From a virus (Duplodnaviria > Heunggongvirae > Uroviricota > Caudoviricetes), in IMG/VR virus record IMGVR_UViG_3300045988_038444, positions 1 through 43,689 of that record: a DNA stretch of 43,689 bases. One strand, written 5' to 3'. The number at the start of each line of letters is the position of its first letter. Positions within the stretch are counted from its first letter, which is position 1. The notes beneath the pieces were generated by a model that saw only the letters and a program-made list of their open reading frames with translations, searched no databases and was not told where the DNA came from. This document shows, piece after piece, positions 16,399-43,689 of this stretch. A program made the translations under genes and the position numbers.

Positions 16399-17310
16399 AT
16401 GAGTAGGAAACGTTTAACCACAGAAGAGTTTATCACGCGTGCCCGTGAAGTTCATGGGCACAAATACGATTACTCACTAGTGGAGTATTTGAATTGGCGC
16501 ACACCTGTGAAAATCATCTGTCCTATACATGGAGTGTTTGAACAAATTCCTAATAATCATTTAAAAGGACGCAAGTGTTTATTCTGTGCAGGAAATCAAC
16601 AATCAAATACCAATGAATTTATCACAAGGGGGCGCGAAGTTCATGGGGGTAAGTATGGTTATTCGTTGGTGAAATATAAAGACTCTCGGACCAAAGTGAA
16701 AATCATTTGTCCAATACACGGAATGTTTGAACAACGTCCATATAGTCACTTGCAGCAAAAAGCAGGTTGCCCACAATGTGCTTGGGAACAATTGTCTGAA
16801 CAAAGACGTTTATCCGCCGAAGAATTCATTACTCGTGCTCGCGAAGTTCACGGGGACCGTTACGACTATTCGTTGGTGGAGTATGTTAACAATTCCACCC
16901 CTGTAAAAATTATTTGTTCAGAACACGGTGTGTTTGAACAGACACCGGGCAATCACACATTTATGAAAGCTGGCTGTCCCCAGTGCGCTGAAACAGGTTT
17001 TAATCCGTCAGAACCCGGCACGTTATATGTACTCGCTGATGATAAACAGTATCCCACTCTGATTAAAATTGGTATTACAAACGACTTAAAACAGCGACTA
17101 CGACAACTACAACGACGAACTCCGCATCTTGTGGTTAAACTTGTATCGTATCCGTTCCCACATGGCGCTGACGCTTACAAACTGGAACAAGAGGTACACA
17201 AGGTCTTTCACGAACTTAATGCGCGTCTCAAAGGCTTTGACGGTGCTACAGAGTGGTTTAAATACTCTCCTGCAATCCTCGATTACATAAATGAAAAAGC
17301 CCGGAACTAA
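16399..17310 (+). CDS. Homing-endonuclease-like protein HE-1: three N-terminal ~60-aa zinc-ribbon repeats + C-terminal T5orf172/GIY-YIG-like domain
   Basis: Three repeats of EEFITRAREVHGxKYDYSLVEY...KIICPIHGVFEQ...GCPQC. C-terminal GTLYVLADDKQYPTLIKIGITNDLKQRLRQLQRR. Inserted between the G/G-T chaperone genes and the tape measure. Confidence 0.6.
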   Translation: MSRKRLTTEEFITRAREVHGHKYDYSLVEYLNWRTPVKIICPIHGVFEQIPNNHLKGRKCLFCAGNQQSNTNEFITRGREVHGGKYGYSLVKYKDSRTKVKIICPIHGMFEQRPYSHLQQKAGCPQCAWEQLSEQRRLSAEEFITRAREVHGDRYDYSLVEYVNNSTPVKIICSEHGVFEQTPGNHTFMKAGCPQCAETGFNPSEPGTLYVLADDKQYPTLIKIGITNDLKQRLRQLQRRTPHLVVKLVSYPFPHGADAYKLEQEVHKVFHELNARLKGFDGATEWFKYSPAILDYINEKARN

Positions 17311-20759: not shown

Positions 20760-21184
20760 TGATTAAACCTCACCATTATTCCGGCTTTTAATATAGCACG
20801 TTCGACAAACCCGGAAGGTGTCTGTGTACTGCTACCACCATTGAGAACCCCAATGTAAGGAACGTTGTTAGTAATATGCAGTTCCTGACCATTAACTTTA
20901 ATACTGCTGATAGTGACTGTATCCTGTTCGATACGTGCTTTACTGGCTTCAACATTACCTGTTGGTGTATCAGGACTATTAGCGGGTTGCCCCTGATCGA
21001 ACCACCAGTTGTTGCTTGCCCAGCCACTCAATATTGGTGTACCATCAGGAGGCTCACTTATGAGTATGTTACGTAGTGTTAAAACATATCTAATGACTTG
21101 ACGATCCGTAAAATCTTGTAAGTCGGCTTTTATGTCTTTAAACACTCCAGTAATACGATTTATATCATTGATTTTGCTAGTCAT
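20756..21184 (-). CDS. Head-tail joining protein (HK97 gp10-like)
   Basis: Start trimmed to ATG 21184 to avoid overlap with the divergent HE-2; contains ISEPPDGTPILSGWASNNWW. Confidence 0.4.
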   Translation of the reverse strand: MTSKINDINRITGVFKDIKADLQDFTDRQVIRYVLTLRNILISEPPDGTPILSGWASNNWWFDQGQPANSPDTPTGNVEASKARIEQDTVTISSIKVNGQELHITNNVPYIGVLNGGSSTQTPSGFVERAILKAGIMVRFNQ

Positions 21185-21206
21185 TGACAAACCTAAAGGT
21201 AGAAAA

Positions 21207-22103
21207 ATGGGCGGTAAAAGACTAACCAAAGAACAACTAGAGCATAACATAAAAGATATTTGTCAATCAAAAAATTACAAATTTATAAAATGGAAAGACG
21301 GGTTTAAAAACAAAGAATCACGAATTATTTTATCTTGTGTTACACACGGGGAATGGGACACTAAATGTTATCATTTTTTGAATGGTTCTGGTTGTCCGAT
21401 CTGTGGTGGAACACGAACCACAAAAGGGTTAAGAATTGCACAGATTAAAGACAGTTTAACAAATTCTAAATCAAAGTTTATTAAATTTAAAACTAATTTT
21501 CAAAATGGAAATTCTGTTTGTTTGCTGAGCTGTATTGATCATGGTGGATGGGAGACAACAGTCAATAGACTAATCTTTACATCTGTTGATTGCCCGTTGT
21601 GTATAACGAATAGACAGAAAACTAAACAAGAACGAGAAATTGAAATAACAAATAGATGTAAAGAAACAGGGTTGTTTTTTAATAAGATATTCGACGAACA
21701 TCCGACATGGAAATCTAAAATATCATTAAAGTGTTCAACGCATGGTGATTTTGTTACAACAATTAATTCTTTTCTTAGTAAACAAAAAGGTTGTCCAAAC
21801 TGTAGTAAAACAGGGTTTAAAGCTGGTAAGTATGCAACACTTTATGTCTTGCGGTCCACATGCGGTCGTTACGTTAAAATAGGTATCAGTAATTGTGTAG
21901 AGCAAAGAATTAATACACTTCGTAGAAAAACACCATTTGATTTTCAAGTAATAGAAAAATTGAATGGACACGGGGCAACCATTCGTTCACTTGAAAAAGA
22001 TTTTCATTCTCATTTTGAATCTGCAGGATTAACCGGGTTCGATGGTTGTACAGAGTGGTTAAAATGGAATCCAAATATAACCACTCTGATACGGATGTTA
22101 TAG
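21207..22103 (+). CDS. Homing-endonuclease-like protein HE-2: three CxxHG...CPxC zinc ribbons + C-terminal T5orf172/GIY-YIG-like domain
   Basis: CVTHGEWDT..GCPICGG, CIDHGGWET..DCPLC and CSTHGDFVT..GCPNC. C-terminal ATLYVLRSTCGRYVKIGISNCVEQRINTLRRK...FDGCTEWLKWNPNITTLIRML. Start trimmed to ATG 21207. Confidence 0.6.
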   Translation: MGGKRLTKEQLEHNIKDICQSKNYKFIKWKDGFKNKESRIILSCVTHGEWDTKCYHFLNGSGCPICGGTRTTKGLRIAQIKDSLTNSKSKFIKFKTNFQNGNSVCLLSCIDHGGWETTVNRLIFTSVDCPLCITNRQKTKQEREIEITNRCKETGLFFNKIFDEHPTWKSKISLKCSTHGDFVTTINSFLSKQKGCPNCSKTGFKAGKYATLYVLRSTCGRYVKIGISNCVEQRINTLRRKTPFDFQVIEKLNGHGATIRSLEKDFHSHFESAGLTGFDGCTEWLKWNPNITTLIRML

Positions 22104-26568: not shown

Positions 26569-26978
26569 TATTCCACATCCTCATAATATGCAGTTCCACC
26601 GATACTATATCCCGTATATTCACCAGTCTGAAACTTTTTCAAAACTTCGTCATCAGTTATCAACGTACCAACAATGACGCCTGTCTGATCCAGTTTATCA
26701 ACCAGTCCAAAACTTGCTGCAATGTCTTCGGTCATCGGGAACGCAAACACAACTTTCCCAACAGGTTGTTGATTATGCATATTATCCATGATGCGCTGAT
26801 CAGAATTCATGAAGTCCAACCATGCTTTCAGAGTGACATCCTCGGGAAATTGCTCGTTGTCCGTGTCTGTGTAAATTTCTAACTGACCTGTCTCCTGATT
26901 ACGTTTTTTACAGATACTACCCCAACCGAATACCATACGTAGTGAGTTGTCAACCTTATTAACTTTTACGTTAATCAC
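26568..26978 (-). CDS. Hypothetical head-module protein (possible prohead protease, XkdF-like?)
   Basis: 136-aa protein between the HE fragment and the scaffold gene; the function call is weak. Confidence 0.3.
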   Translation of the reverse strand: MINVKVNKVDNSLRMVFGWGSICKKRNQETGQLEIYTDTDNEQFPEDVTLKAWLDFMNSDQRIMDNMHNQQPVGKVVFAFPMTEDIAASFGLVDKLDQTGVIVGTLITDDEVLKKFQTGEYTGYSIGGTAYYEDVE

Positions 26979-27385
26979 GGGGATTGTCCTCGTATTGTTT
27001 CAACATGACTAAATTCTAACATTTCGGATGAATAATTGCACTGGTGATACACGCTGTTTACAACGTTACCGAATATCTCAGAAAGATTCTTGATCGGTTC
27101 AACAGCAGTCGTTACTGGTTCAACAGCAGTCGTTACTGGTTCAACAGTAGTCGTTACCGGTTCAACAGTAGTCGTTACCGGTTCAACAGCAGTCGTTACT
27201 GGTTCAACAGCGTCCAGATGTTCAGCGACAACCTGGAAAAACACTGTGTTAGTTTCACGGTCAATAATAACCACTGTGCTGGAACTATCTTCAACAATGC
27301 TGAATGAGTAGTCGTAACGATCACCGTGAATTTTACGGGCGCGACGAATGAATTCGTCTGTAGCAACTCTGATGTTCGGATCCAT
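26975..27385 (-). CDS. Homing-endonuclease-related fragment: one EFIRRARKIHGDRYDYS module + (VEPVTTA)x6 repeat + short C-terminus; no nuclease domain
   Basis: DEFIRRARKIHGDRYDYSFS matches the HE-1 repeat. Start trimmed to ATG 27385 (AAGGG SD). Driven by the minus-strand promoter copy at 27416-27462. Confidence 0.5.
   Translation of the reverse strand: MDPNIRVATDEFIRRARKIHGDRYDYSFSIVEDSSSTVVIIDRETNTVFFQVVAEHLDAVEPVTTAVEPVTTTVEPVTTTVEPVTTAVEPVTTAVEPIKNLSEIFGNVVNSVYHQCNYSSEMLEFSHVETIRGQSP
27096..27215 (-). repeat. Tandem 21-bp repeat (ggttcaacagcagtcgttact, ~5.7 copies) encoding VEPVTTA heptads
   Basis: Copies at 27096, 27117, 27138, 27159 and 27180, plus a partial copy. Confidence 0.85.
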
Positions 27386-27415
27386 ACATTCAACCCTTCT
27401 TGTTCTCTTAACCAC

Positions 27416-27462
27416 AGGGTAGTTGTGTCGGTGTAATCCGTCAAGAATTATTTTGCGTATAG
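27416..27462 (-). promoter_or_regulatory. Early-type promoter copy on the MINUS strand (revcomp = CAAAATAATTCTTGACGGATTACACCGACACAACTACCCTGTGG), divergent from P3
   Basis: Near-identical (about 90%) to P3 over ~45 nt including the spacer; -35 CGTCAA at plus 27439-27444; -10 TACCCT. Confidence 0.65.
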
Positions 27463-27526
27463 ATTCATGGGAAGTATGCGACCCCCTATACCTTTTAAAC
27501 CTCTCCTACTTGCAGCAACTTTTACT

Positions 27527-27637
27527 ACTTATACTACTCTTCTATTTATCTATGTTTATTATGTTTTCTATAAAAAGATAACAAAAAGAATAAGATAGAG
27601 AGGGGTTGGTTAAAAAGTAAACATGACGAAATATATG
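27527..27637. repeat. Conserved ~105-bp intergenic element, copy A (core ttctataaaaagataacaaaaagaataagatagagaggggttggttaaaaagtaaacatgacgaaatatatg)
   Basis: About 90% identical to 42607-42713. Confidence 0.8.
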
Positions 27638-27651
27638 AATCTATGATCTAC

Positions 27652-27733
27652 TAATACACGTTCTGTATTAGCCGCAACTCAAAATCATGAAACCTATGTA
27701 GAACTATGTGCAGTTAGTACACGTTCTGTATTA
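27652..27733. promoter_or_regulatory. Two 19-bp palindromic operator-like sites TAATACAcgttcTGTATTA (27652-27670) and TAGTACAcgttcTGTATTA (27715-27733), 63 bp apart, just upstream of P3
   Basis: Perfect 7-bp inverted repeat with a 5-bp spacer; the second copy has one mismatch. Confidence 0.55.
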
Positions 27734-27740
27734 ACTGCAT

Positions 27741-27783
27741 CTTTAAAATAATTCTTGACGGATTACACCGACGCAACTATCTT
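27741..27783 (+). promoter_or_regulatory. Early promoter copy P3 (-35 TTGACG 27755-27760, -10 TATCTT)
   Basis: CTTTAAAATAATTCTTGACGGATTACACCGACGCAACTATCTT. Confidence 0.7.
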
Positions 27784-27814
27784 GTGGTTAACAGGAAGAA
27801 AAAGGAGACATGCA

Positions 27815-27887: not shown

Positions 27888-28436
27888 ATGAACGAACTGA
27901 CAAACACCAACGTTGATTTCACAATGTCCAGCCTGGATTTCTTGAAGAATGTTATCAACCCAGCACGTGTGGCTGAAGGTGAGGAAGTCTGGGTCCGTCA
28001 TAATGATTTCTTAGCCAGAGTTAAGGATGAATTAGAAGGTCAAGTTTTGGTTACGAAACTTTTCACACCCAAACTTCAGGGAAGAGGTGGCAATAGAAAA
28101 CCGTTTGAAGTGGTCGATCTAAACATGGATCAAATGCTTCTTGTGGGTATGCGTGAATCTAAAGCCGTTCGCAAAGCTGTATTAGCCAAATTAAAGAAGT
28201 TGAATAACCACCAACACCAACCGTTACTACAGTTACAGTGTGAAATCGGAGAATTGCACAAACAGAATGACGAACTACGTAACGAAATTGAAGTCGATCG
28301 TAAGACCTATGATTTGTTGTTGGTAGACATGAAAAAGTTATGGGAAGAGAAAGAAAATCTGCAAAAAGAATTAACTGCTTTGCGTAAACAGGATGATGTT
28401 CGTAAACGTGCGCTTAAACTTTTACTTGGGTTATAA
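27888..28436 (+). CDS. Putative regulatory/DNA-binding protein with a C-terminal coiled coil (Rha/antirepressor-like?)
   Basis: 182 aa; N-terminal ...FEVVDLNMDQMLLVGMRESKAVRKAVLAKLKKL, C-terminal heptad-rich ELHKQNDELRNEIE. Confidence 0.4.
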   Translation: MNELTNTNVDFTMSSLDFLKNVINPARVAEGEEVWVRHNDFLARVKDELEGQVLVTKLFTPKLQGRGGNRKPFEVVDLNMDQMLLVGMRESKAVRKAVLAKLKKLNNHQHQPLLQLQCEIGELHKQNDELRNEIEVDRKTYDLLLVDMKKLWEEKENLQKELTALRKQDDVRKRALKLLLGL

Positions 28437-29104: not shown

Positions 29105-29178
29105 TGATTAACTTGGTTCGATGGCTGTACTGAGTGGTTAAAATGGAATCCAAATATAACCACTCTAATACGTATAAT
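29105..29178 (+). pseudogene. Remnant of a homing-endonuclease 3' end (~90% nt identity to the last 70 nt of HE-2; WFDGCTEWLKWNPNITTLIRIITG*)
   Basis: cttggttcgatggctgtactgagtggttaaaatggaatccaaatataaccactctaatacg versus HE-2 ccgggttcgatggttgtacagagtggttaaaatggaatccaaatataaccactctgatacg. Confidence 0.6.
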
Positions 29179-30310: not shown

Positions 30311-30505
30311 TCATCTTTTGTCACGATTATAACGTCCTTTAAAACCGGGTCTGACCATCAACTTACCATTCACCACCGCGTGAAATTCACCATTGGTGTC
30401 ATCCATATATTTATAAACTGTCGCTTTGTTACACCCAATCCTCCTAGCAAGTTCTGTCACGTTGCCATAAACGGTGGGTAGTAATTCAGAAATAGTTTGA
30501 ACCAT
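30311..30505 (-). CDS. Small HTH DNA-binding protein (64 aa)
   Basis: TELARRIGCNKATVYKYM is HTH-like. Confidence 0.4.
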   Translation of the reverse strand: MVQTISELLPTVYGNVTELARRIGCNKATVYKYMDDTNGEFHAVVNGKLMVRPGFKGRYNRDKR

Positions 30506-42333: not shown

Positions 42334-42390
42334 AAATTTGTCTCCCATAAATTTTAAATTAGTTTCCCACAGATACCCACGGGTTGTCCA

Positions 42391-42570
42391 CACGCCCTGT
42401 TTTACAGCTAATACAATGTTAATATTAAGTTTACAGTTAGTGCACAATATGCATTAATTTTCGACTATATACATAAATACGTAGCCCATAATCACAATGA
42501 TTTCAAAGACTTGCATAAAAACATAGATTACAATAGGTATCTCCCAGACTTTTATTTTAGCTCTATTTAC
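42391..42570 (+). promoter_or_regulatory. Two copies of TTTACAGCTAATACA (42391-42405, 42556-42570), possibly -35 regions of rightward promoters
   Basis: Exact 15-mer repeat 165 bp apart. The first copy is followed at 16 nt by TATTAA. Confidence 0.3.
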
Positions 42571-42606
42571 AGCTAATACACTATATGCACTATCTCTATC
42601 TTTCTA

Positions 42607-42713
42607 TACTACTTCTTCTTTATATCTATGTTTTCTATGTTATCTATAAAAAGATAATAAAAAGAATAAGATAGAGAAGGGTCGGTTAAAAAATAAACAT
42701 GACGAAATCTATG
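42607..42713. repeat. Conserved ~105-bp intergenic element, copy B
   Basis: About 90% identical to 27527-27637 (..tctataaaaagataataaaaagaataagatagagaagggtcggttaaaaaataaacatgacgaaatctatg). Confidence 0.8.
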
Positions 42714-42728
42714 TTAAGTATAACTTTA

Positions 42729-42905
42729 ATGCACAACATGCACTATATAATTCACAACGTGCATTAGCTGTGCCAACATAGATACACAACGTGCACTAAC
42801 AGTTAATACACAACGTGCATCTTGCACTAACTGCTAAAGCACAACATGCACTAAGTGTAAATACACTAACATATAAAGCACGTCTTGCACTAGCTGCTAA
42901 TGCAC
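42729..42905. repeat. Iteron/operator array: at least 5 imperfect palindromes nGCAC-AAC-(G/A)TGCA (cores at ~42730, 42751, 42783, 42807 and 42838) plus related GCACGTCTTGCACTAGCTGC and ATGCACGTT, spaced 24-32 bp
   Basis: Direct reading; the sites share CACAAC(G/A)TGCA(C/T)T and several are followed by CTAAC/CTAAG. Confidence 0.6.
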
Positions 42906-42944
42906 GTTATGATTTATCCGTGGTCAAACAAGAAGGGTATGATA

Positions 42945-43689
42945 ATGAAAAAGAACCTTTTAGACGAATTAATAGATTTAAAAGGCGGGGTACAAAACGC
43001 TGTTGAATACCTTAATCGTCGAGGTGTTAAGGTGACTGTTGGTCGTTACAACCAATGGTTAAGCGGTAGGTTTCATCCTAAATATGAAACGATCAGTATT
43101 ATTCTTGAAGAGATTACTGACTTCACACTGTCACCCTTGCCAGTACAACATTCTGACGAAAACATTGTTCTTAAACACACAATACCGGTTACCGAACTGC
43201 GTCAGAAATTACCACACAGACGTTTTGCTAATAACTACTGGCAACGTGTCAGATACGTTGATTCACAGATCCTGGAAGCTGTTCACGGTCACGACGTGTG
43301 GACACGGTTTGAGGCGATGTGTGGTAATTTTGAATGTGCAAGATATGTGCTACGCAGAAATTTAAACGAACACACAATTACTGACAGTTGGATTCAAAAT
43401 GGTTTGCGCCGGGGATGGATCCCGGAATGTGTAAACGTAATGGTCGATTTGCTTGAAAAATACGAAGGCACCGGGACACCGTTTAACGTAATGGTTTGTG
43501 AACCACCTGTATCACGAGTGGAACCACCTGTATCACGAGTGGAAGCACCTGTATCACGAGTGGAACCACCTGTATCACGAGTGGAAGCACCTGTAGCACG
43601 AGTTGAAGCACCTGTAGCACGATTTGAACCGCCTGTAGTCGATGTCAGCGATTTGAAGGAGAAAATCAGACTGTATGCGTTATCACACA
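42945..43689 (+). CDS. Partial CDS (N-terminal 248 aa; no stop inside the window): HTH-like N-terminal region, then a (VEPPVSR/VEAPVAR)n repeat linker; probably continues in the partial ORF at 1..249
   Basis: ATG 42945; the frame is open to the window end; MKKNLLDELIDLKGGVQNAVEYLNRRGVKVTVGRYNQWLSGRF... Confidence 0.5.
   Translation, partial: MKKNLLDELIDLKGGVQNAVEYLNRRGVKVTVGRYNQWLSGRFHPKYETISIILEEITDFTLSPLPVQHSDENIVLKHTIPVTELRQKLPHRRFANNYWQRVRYVDSQILEAVHGHDVWTRFEAMCGNFECARYVLRRNLNEHTITDSWIQNGLRRGWIPECVNVMVDLLEKYEGTGTPFNVMVCEPPVSRVEPPVSRVEAPVSRVEPPVSRVEAPVARVEAPVARFEPPVVDVSDLKEKIRLYALSH
43500..43640 (+). repeat. Tandem 21-bp repeat (gaaccacctgtatcacgagtg, ~6.7 copies with drift) inside coding sequence
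   Basis: Copies at 43500, 43521, 43542, 43563, 43584 and 43605, plus a partial copy. Confidence 0.85.

Follow-up and report, generated by a model that had tools for sequence, protein, structure and literature searches.

Locus A, the subject of this analysis, is a noncoding region located between the minus-strand head genes, which end at position 27415, and one plus-strand cassette in a 43,689-nucleotide viral sequence (positions 1 to 43,689 of IMG/VR record IMGVR_UViG_3300045988_038444), referred to here in its full length as the window. The locus combines an AT-rich element with two dyad-symmetric sites, and a second locus built from the same parts, locus B, lies approximately 15 kb away. 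Modules of iterons and AT-rich DNA are already known, as is a layout with two origins. In satellite phage P4, ori and crr are two separated clusters of one iteron that are bound by one phage protein (alpha), and both clusters contribute to replication. In the lambdoid phages, changes in origin specificity go along with changes in the N-terminal domain of the initiator. The two origins of SPP1, oriL and oriR, each consist of repeats and an AT-rich unwinding element, are ~13 kb apart, and are both bound by gp38 (PMC6316719, PMC5737612). oriL is located at the initiator gene and oriR amid three moron genes in the head-gene cluster past gene 7, and the oriR complex has been proposed to stall replication forks and so bring about a switch to concatemer synthesis (PMC6316719, PMC5737612). 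The iterons of lambda are 19-bp imperfect inverted repeats, two of which together with an AT-rich tract form the minimal unit for unwinding and in vitro replication, and the lambda origin additionally requires nearby transcription (PMC7466680). Based on the features described below, the dyads at loci A and B are probably binding sites of one phage protein, a member of the 9NA gp84 family, and belong to a single two-locus system. Locus A itself is tentatively read, with somewhat less than even confidence, as the second of two origin-type modules, in which an unwinding element and two iterons are placed between divergent promoters.

The source phage is a 9NA-like siphovirus (Nonanavirus/Sashavirus) whose nearest relatives are the E. 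coli phages PJ16, BDX09P1, 536P12, AVIO78A, PDP46 and KarinMuster, with 93-96% identity across the locus A region; the window is oriented as the reverse complement of the GenBank records of these relatives. Site 1 of locus A (27652-27670) is a perfect 7-5-7 dyad, TAATACAcgttcTGTATTA, that reads TAATACA-cgttc-TGTATTA with no mismatches. Site 2 is an extended dyad, GCAGTTAgTACAcgttcTGTATTAACTGC (27710-27738; 29 bp with 12-bp arms and one mismatch), with a 19-bp core at 27715-27733, and the two sites are 63 bp apart from start to start. A first-pass annotation of the window had reported two perfect palindromes at this distance, which is correct for site 1 and for the distance, but the core of site 2 has one mismatch (TAGTACA...TGTATTA). 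Chance alone would yield ~2-3 single perfect 7-5-7 palindromes in 43.7 kb, and the significance of the sites therefore rests on their repetition, their clustering and their conservation in relatives.

The sites at locus A had been taken to differ from the iterons at 42729-42905, which led to the suggestion that two different DNA-binding proteins act at these loci. Neither idea holds, as the sites at locus A and the iterons at 42.7 kb belong to one 7-5-7 family, TAATRCA-N5-TGYATTA, and co-vary across lineages. With two mismatches allowed, this family has 11 matches in the window compared with 0.9 expected, of which two are at locus A and nine at locus B. No member of the family was found in the window outside the two loci, and none was found in the remaining 17 kb of KarinMuster that lie beyond the coverage of the window. 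Many of the sites have the outer extension CAGYTAATRCA in common. Locus B holds ~9-10 sites in total, on both sides of its copy of the AT-rich element, so that repeated sites are clustered in a short noncoding stretch at each locus. Three of them (42409-42427, 42438-42456 and 42574-42592) are between the start of the small-terminase gene and the element, and the others form a right array (42727-42916) with sites at 42727, 42748, 42780 (degenerate), 42804, 42835, 42874 and 42898. The last two sites of the right array overlap a weak promoter-like sequence, TTGCAC-17-TATGAT, which precedes the gene that starts at 42945.

The AT-rich element was recognized by profile matching on the plus strand at 27522-27649 (copy A, core 27538-27637) and at 42596-42716 (copy B). 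The 100-nt core of copy A is 90% identical to 42614-42713, in agreement with the earlier description of a second copy of a conserved element at locus A, and a profile search of the window identified no copies other than A and B. Copy A consists of a CT-rich leader, three tandem 9-mers at 27546-27572 (TTATCTATG, TTTATTATG and TTTTCTATA), A-tracts, and a terminal ATCTATG at 27639-27645. A core with the same order of parts is common to all lineages: the leader, a set of three tandem repeats of 9-10 bp (TATCTATAC in the Salmonella phages), and the A-tracts. The right half of the element is retained in every A copy, as well as in B copies of the E. coli type. The AT content of the elements is 83%. 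Calculated from nearest-neighbour energies, copies A and B are the two least stable duplex segments in 43.7 kb for windows of 40, 60 and 100 bp, ~3.7-4 standard deviations from the mean; copy B is the least stable and copy A ranks second for each of these window sizes. The low-stability element is directly beside the iterons, with site 1 starting 14 bp beyond the core of element A. The motif ATCTATG is invariant and occurs seven times in the window, six of them at loci A and B, and site 1 begins exactly 6 nt past this motif in every lineage, whatever the type of the site.

Loci A and B were read in relatives from GenBank and IMG/VR, where the architecture of the loci is kept and the sequence of the sites is not. 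At least six site types were distinguished by lineage. In addition to the type found in the window, these include ATAACA-N5-TGTTAT (9NA and contigs L017/L037 and L024), CTTACCAG (L013/L039 and L015/L035), TAATACTATSATAGTGT (L022), TACCAGATGTGTA (L070) and AACC-N5-TGGTT (L071). At locus A of L018, the relative that is most distant (71% gp37 identity), an AT-rich stretch is accompanied by three ATACCG-N3-CGGTAT dyads; the L018 contig was searched for a second locus with such dyads, and locus A was the only one recovered. The same site type is present at A and B in eight of the nine genomes in which both loci were readable. The spacing of the sites at locus A is 63 bp in the E. coli-phage lineage, which fits the six helical turns proposed in the first-pass annotation, but it is 60, 67, 69 or 70 bp in other lineages. 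The sequences on either side of the module are less constant. The cassette behind P3, the plus-strand promoter that follows site 2, is swapped in close relatives that keep identical sites, and on the left side an open reading frame (ORF) with similarity to DUF723 was inserted together with an extra promoter in the E. coli phages only. The module has persisted despite this replacement of flanking genes. As a separate observation, the asymmetric 5-bp dyad centre cgttc (27659-27663 and 27722-27726 in the window) is replaced by gaacg in some close relatives, in site 1 only, in site 2 only or in both (the relatives compared were L004, L007, L012, L013 and L015), and L013 and L015 differ from one another likewise (gtt versus aac). 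These swaps indicate that whole sites were flipped without other change, as expected from template switching at palindromes, which in turn indicates that the orientation of the sites is not constrained.

The best candidate for the protein that binds the sites is encoded beside locus B, on the plus strand, by a gene (42945-43689) that continues beyond the end of the window and belongs to phrog_25538, the 9NA gp84 family. Its product has a variable N-terminal domain of four helices that resembles a helix-turn-helix (HTH) domain (residues ~1-60), a conserved helical domain (~76-180), a proline-rich linker of 7-residue repeats, and a conserved acidic tail. Across the six types, the type of the sites tracks the N-terminal ~60 residues of the protein beside locus B, and the central region (~76-180) is nearly invariant. 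The clearest case is P0003, a protein whose body is close to that of the window protein and whose N-terminus is different, and which is accompanied by different iterons beside an otherwise identical element. The AlphaFold model of the 42945 product is weak overall (predicted local distance difference test, pLDDT, 59.5), but the N-terminal four-helix domain is modelled confidently (pLDDT 75-89), and the only Foldseek matches to it with a low root-mean-square deviation are HTH domains of the Xre/Cro type, at scores that are not significant. No link to a known family was obtained for the product with Pfam, PHROGs, NCBIfam, a PDB sequence profile, AlphaFold and Foldseek, or a profile search of 1.8 billion proteins; about a dozen representatives of phrog_25538 were present among the latter, all of them from 9NA-like phages. 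The co-variation of protein and sites points to recognition of the dyads at both loci by this protein, and the product probably regulates its own gene, as the sites at locus B cover its promoter.

Other candidates for the binder fare less well. The product of 27888-28436 and the NinH protein (30311-30505) had been proposed along with the 42945 product. The former is unlikely since close relatives with the same sites have a different cassette behind P3, and NinH is unlikely because it does not vary in step with the type of the locus B sites. The small terminase was rejected given its conservation (83% identity, 92% mean column identity, N-terminal region included) across lineages that have wholly different sites.

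Several rearrangements were seen within the gp84 family. In L023, a truncated ORF at 1-160 corresponds to the 9NA-type N-terminal HTH domain alone and immediately precedes a full-length member whose N-terminus is different, an arrangement that looks like the scar of a domain replacement. Proteins P0011, P0018 and P0019 include stand-alone HTH-domain proteins (71 and 86 residues) and a member with a duplicated central domain. The proline-rich heptads (VEPVTTA, PVSRVEP) are encoded by 21-bp tandem repeats that occur in unrelated ORFs (27088-27231, 43500-43646 and 1-117), among them the DUF723-like fragment as well as the linker of the gp84 family, and their copy number varies widely, from 14 in Sasha gp81 to none in 9NA.

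Locus A lies between promoters that face away from one another. P3 and its leader (27742-27805, plus strand) comprise an AT-rich upstream part, TTTAAAATAATTC, a -35 element TTGACG (27755-27760), a spacer of 17 nt and a -10 element TATCTT (27778-27783). The promoter belongs to a near-invariant sigma-70-type family, TTTAAAATAATTCTTGACGGATTACA, that heads every plus-strand cassette interrupting the virion genes, with nine plus-strand copies in the window (16146-41399). Site 2 ends 21 bp upstream of the -35 element of P3, essentially the ~22 bp given in the first-pass annotation, and site 1 ends 84 bp upstream, so that neither site overlaps the core promoter. The dyad sites accompany none of the eight other plus-strand copies of the promoter. 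On the other side of the element, the conserved promoter is found in the opposite orientation as a result of an inverted repeat (61 nt, 85% identity) with arms at 27394-27454 and 27745-27805. The left arm (27394-27454, minus strand) carries the AT-rich upstream part and the -35 element TTGACG (27444-27439), which together with it make up the minus-strand member of the family TTTAAAATAATTCTTGACGGATTACA at 27431-27454. A reverse copy of the promoter had been described here, and its upstream part and -35 element are indeed intact, but its -10 element, TACCCT (27421-27416), is poor, with three of six positions matching. A simple promoter scan called neither this copy nor the promoter of the 42945 gene. 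The minus-strand copy faces the head genes and the ORF at 26975-27415, which has a DUF723-like N-terminus and lacks the T5orf172 nuclease domain of the full genes at 16399-17310 and 21132-22103. The minus-strand promoter and this ORF are absent from 9NA and Sasha, which have an extended -10 element, TGATATTAT, instead; the element in these phages is ~110 bp from gp37, behind the extended -10. The long inverted repeat was found only in the sub-lineage of the window, PJ16 and BDX09P1.

The comparison with SPP1 extends to several features. Both phages are virulent pac-type siphoviruses with two similarly built loci, ~13 kb apart in SPP1 and 15 kb apart here. One locus is at or beside the gene for the binding protein, and the other is in the head genes past a gp7-type gene and among small morons; in 9NA, the equivalent gap is between gp36 and gp37, just past the SPP1-gp7-like gp33 and three small reversed genes, gp34-36. 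A single protein binds both loci in SPP1, and the same is predicted here. The systems differ in that oriL is inside gene 38 and the sites at locus B are upstream of the gene, that the SPP1 boxes are direct repeats rather than 19-bp dyads, that no homology to G38P was detected for the candidate binder, and that SPP1 relies on the replisome of its host, in contrast to the polymerase, primase and helicase that this phage encodes itself. The replication set is T7-like based on the annotations of Sasha and KarinMuster, which list a polymerase, a Gp2.5-like single-stranded DNA-binding protein, exonucleases, a helicase and a primase and name no initiator. With its two 19-bp inverted-repeat iterons and an AT-rich tract, locus A also resembles the minimal lambda origin. 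Lambda, in contrast, has a single locus inside gene O, its iterons are ~20-24 bp apart compared with 63 bp for the A sites, and the O protein has a winged-helix N-terminus, which was not detected in the 42945 product. P4 has short direct octamers as iterons, the binder of its iterons is a primase-helicase, and its two loci are 4.5 kb apart.

An origin-type module is favored for locus A since the sites are tied to the element rather than to a promoter, the module has survived swaps of its flanks, just one of the nine promoter copies has sites, and the element is the most easily melted type of DNA in the window. The anatomy of the loci, the restriction of the sites to two places, the co-variation with the protein and the instability of the duplex are observed features, and binding, unwinding and any role in replication are inferred. 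Dimers of the phage HTH protein, the 42945 product, would bind the iterons beside the AT-rich element. Based on the twin-domain model, divergent transcription from P3 and the leftward promoter would supply negative supercoiling, and the bound protein together with the supercoiling would open the AT-rich element, allowing the T7-like helicase, primase and polymerase to load. Alternatively, as was proposed for SPP1 oriR, the protein-bound locus A could be a secondary origin, or it could aid the switch to concatemer synthesis by acting as a barrier to forks.

Several points weigh against a role as an origin. No sequence or fold relationship was found between the 42945 product and lambda O, SPP1 G38P or other known initiators, and the product belongs to none of the initiator families considered (lambda O, G38P/DnaD-like, RepA and DnaA). 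Its predicted HTH domain is instead of the type found in repressors (Xre). The two sites at locus A lie 63 bp apart, unlike the adjacent iterons of lambda. The Sasha group is the exception to the agreement between the loci, as its locus B and protein are of the E. coli type and its A sites are of the TACCAGAT type; these A sites are non-cognate, indicating that phages remain viable without cognate binding at locus A. The cumulative GC skew is lowest at 27550, inside element A, but this is confounded by gene orientation. The minimum coincides with the end of a long minus-strand gene block, follows the orientation of the genes and is inseparable from transcription-linked skew, and it was not used as evidence. 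Finally, the position of the loci upstream of both main virion operons fits a transcriptional role equally well. Such a role, at least in the form of autoregulation, is likely in addition to any function in replication, and it could be the sole role.

A purely transcriptional function is the most serious alternative, rated somewhat less probable than an origin. The dyads would then be operators through which the 42945 product autoregulates its gene and controls P3 and/or the leftward promoters of the head genes and the terminase in an early-to-late switch, with the element being simply bent or spacer DNA. Dyads of ~17-19 bp that are recognized by an HTH dimer, are located between divergent promoters and diverge in specificity among related phages are reminiscent of the lambda OR and OL operators for Cro and CI, and the Xre-like N-terminus predicted for the 42945 product is in keeping with this likeness. 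The sites at locus B overlap the -10/-35-like sequence of the gene for the protein, and those of the 9NA-type phages extend over its ribosome-binding site and border the beginning of the terminase gene. Loci A and B are the sole long divergent intergenic regions, each is directly upstream of a main virion operon (head protease to capsid and small terminase, respectively), and site 2 is just upstream of the AT-rich upstream part of P3. True operators in OR and OL overlap the -35 and -10 elements, however, and the A sites are tied to the AT-rich element and leave the core promoter free. The distance from the centre of site 2 to the -35 element of P3 varies by ~11 bp between lineages and the site-to-site interval ranges from 60 to 70 bp, the other eight plus-strand copies of the promoter have no sites, and the genes behind P3 are not conserved where the sites are. 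Control of transcription moreover gives no role to a conserved and highly unstable 100-bp element or to the fixed 6-nt link between this element and site 1, and the Sasha group lives with non-cognate A sites. The regulated divergent switch envisaged in the first-pass annotation is thus retained in part: the palindromes are very probably protein-binding sites between divergent promoters, but their geometry does not fit that of a switch acting at P3.

It is improbable, although somewhat less so than the explanations that follow, that the loci form a protein-coated DNA platform with another cis function, such as looping between the loci, a hotspot for recombination or concatemer resolution, or a decoy or anti-defence element. 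The distant loci have common sites and a second invariant motif, ATCTATG, with six of its seven occurrences at the loci, which suggests a multi-protein complex. Nothing specific indicates any of these functions, however, and an origin accounts more simply for the anatomy of the element and iterons. A pac recognition region bound by the small terminase is very unlikely. Locus B does adjoin the small-terminase gene, but the terminase is nearly invariant where the sites differ completely, and a second copy amid the head genes would make a second packaging series, whereas 9NA shows a single pac fragment (PMC4153490). A small RNA or peptide product of the element is less probable again. The plus strand of both copies folds slightly better than shuffled sequences (z = -2.6 and -2.8) and a 43-residue ORF is present at 27467-27598, but there is no Rfam match in the whole window, the consensus fold is weak at just -2.06 kcal/mol with no covariation (covariation term -0.19), B copies of the 9NA type lack the hairpin, and the copies differ by single-base indels that disrupt the frame, so that both a structured RNA and a peptide were rejected. 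An invertible promoter switch, suggested by the 61-nt inverted repeat around a 290-bp segment, is the least probable explanation and was rejected as close to refuted, since the relatives are all collinear and in one orientation, no recombinase gene was found among the neighbouring ORFs, and the long repeat is limited to one sub-lineage and amounts to the common promoter plus leader.

The organization of genes around the loci provides some further context. The minus strand carries the virion genes, which are interrupted by plus-strand cassettes. Most minus-strand gene blocks begin just 45-70 bp from the promoter of such a cassette, and these blocks are therefore probably served by read-through from loci A and B. 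At their 3' ends, plus-strand cassettes carry a 70-nt repeat (91% identical) with a hairpin, GAGTGGTTA...TAACCACTC, found at 22027-22096, 29106-29175 and 17233-17263. The combination of this 3' hairpin repeat with the invariant 5' promoter suggests that the cassettes are bounded, moron-like units. Full-length genes of the homing-endonuclease type, with DUF723/CapR and T5orf172 (GIY-YIG-like) domains, are present at 16399-17310 and 21132-22103, interspersed with tail and head genes; the gene at 21132-22103 is among the most AT-rich stretches of the window. A further motif, (A)CCCGTGGTTAA(C) or GTGGTTAAC, trails the -10 element of several otherwise unlike promoters, namely P3, its minus-strand copy, the extended -10 of 9NA gp37 and the gp84/gp81 promoter, and is also present upstream of the small-terminase gene. 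It is located at 27784-27793, 27406-27415 (minus strand), 42917-42930 and 42378-42390 in the window, at ~2908-2920 in L001, and at locus B of Sasha. The motif may be a common initial-transcribed or leader signal.

No mention of the repeats at these loci was found in the literature searched, which did not extend to the principal genomic study of these phages (Zeng et al. 2019). The novelty lies in the protein family, in dyads that fall into at least six specificities, in two loci that co-evolve at a distance of 15 kb, and in the presence of such a system among enterobacterial phages with a replisome of their own. It is conceivable, if rather doubtful, that phrog_25538/9NA gp84 is an unrecognized family of origin-binding proteins with a swappable HTH domain and an arginine-rich conserved central domain, the latter perhaps recognizing the invariant 9-mers of the unwinding element. 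Such a family would serve a two-locus, co-evolving origin system and be a convergent counterpart, in enterobacterial phages, of SPP1 oriL/oriR and of the control proposed there over the transition from theta to sigma replication. Phages of the 9NA-like group, some of which are plasmid-dependent, are used in work on therapy and biocontrol, and they have no annotated origin or initiator. The analysis names two cis modules and one candidate binder for these phages, together with a naturally occurring set of specificities, some matched and some not, in which Sasha provides the mismatch at locus A. Whatever the modules do, the idea that two regulators act at these loci is corrected. If the modules are operators, the map defines a regulator of early and late genes. 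If they are origins, the two-origin design of SPP1 would be present in unrelated phages that have a T7-like replisome, which would strengthen the case for a general role of a second initiator-bound site in the late genes, for example in the switch to concatemer synthesis.

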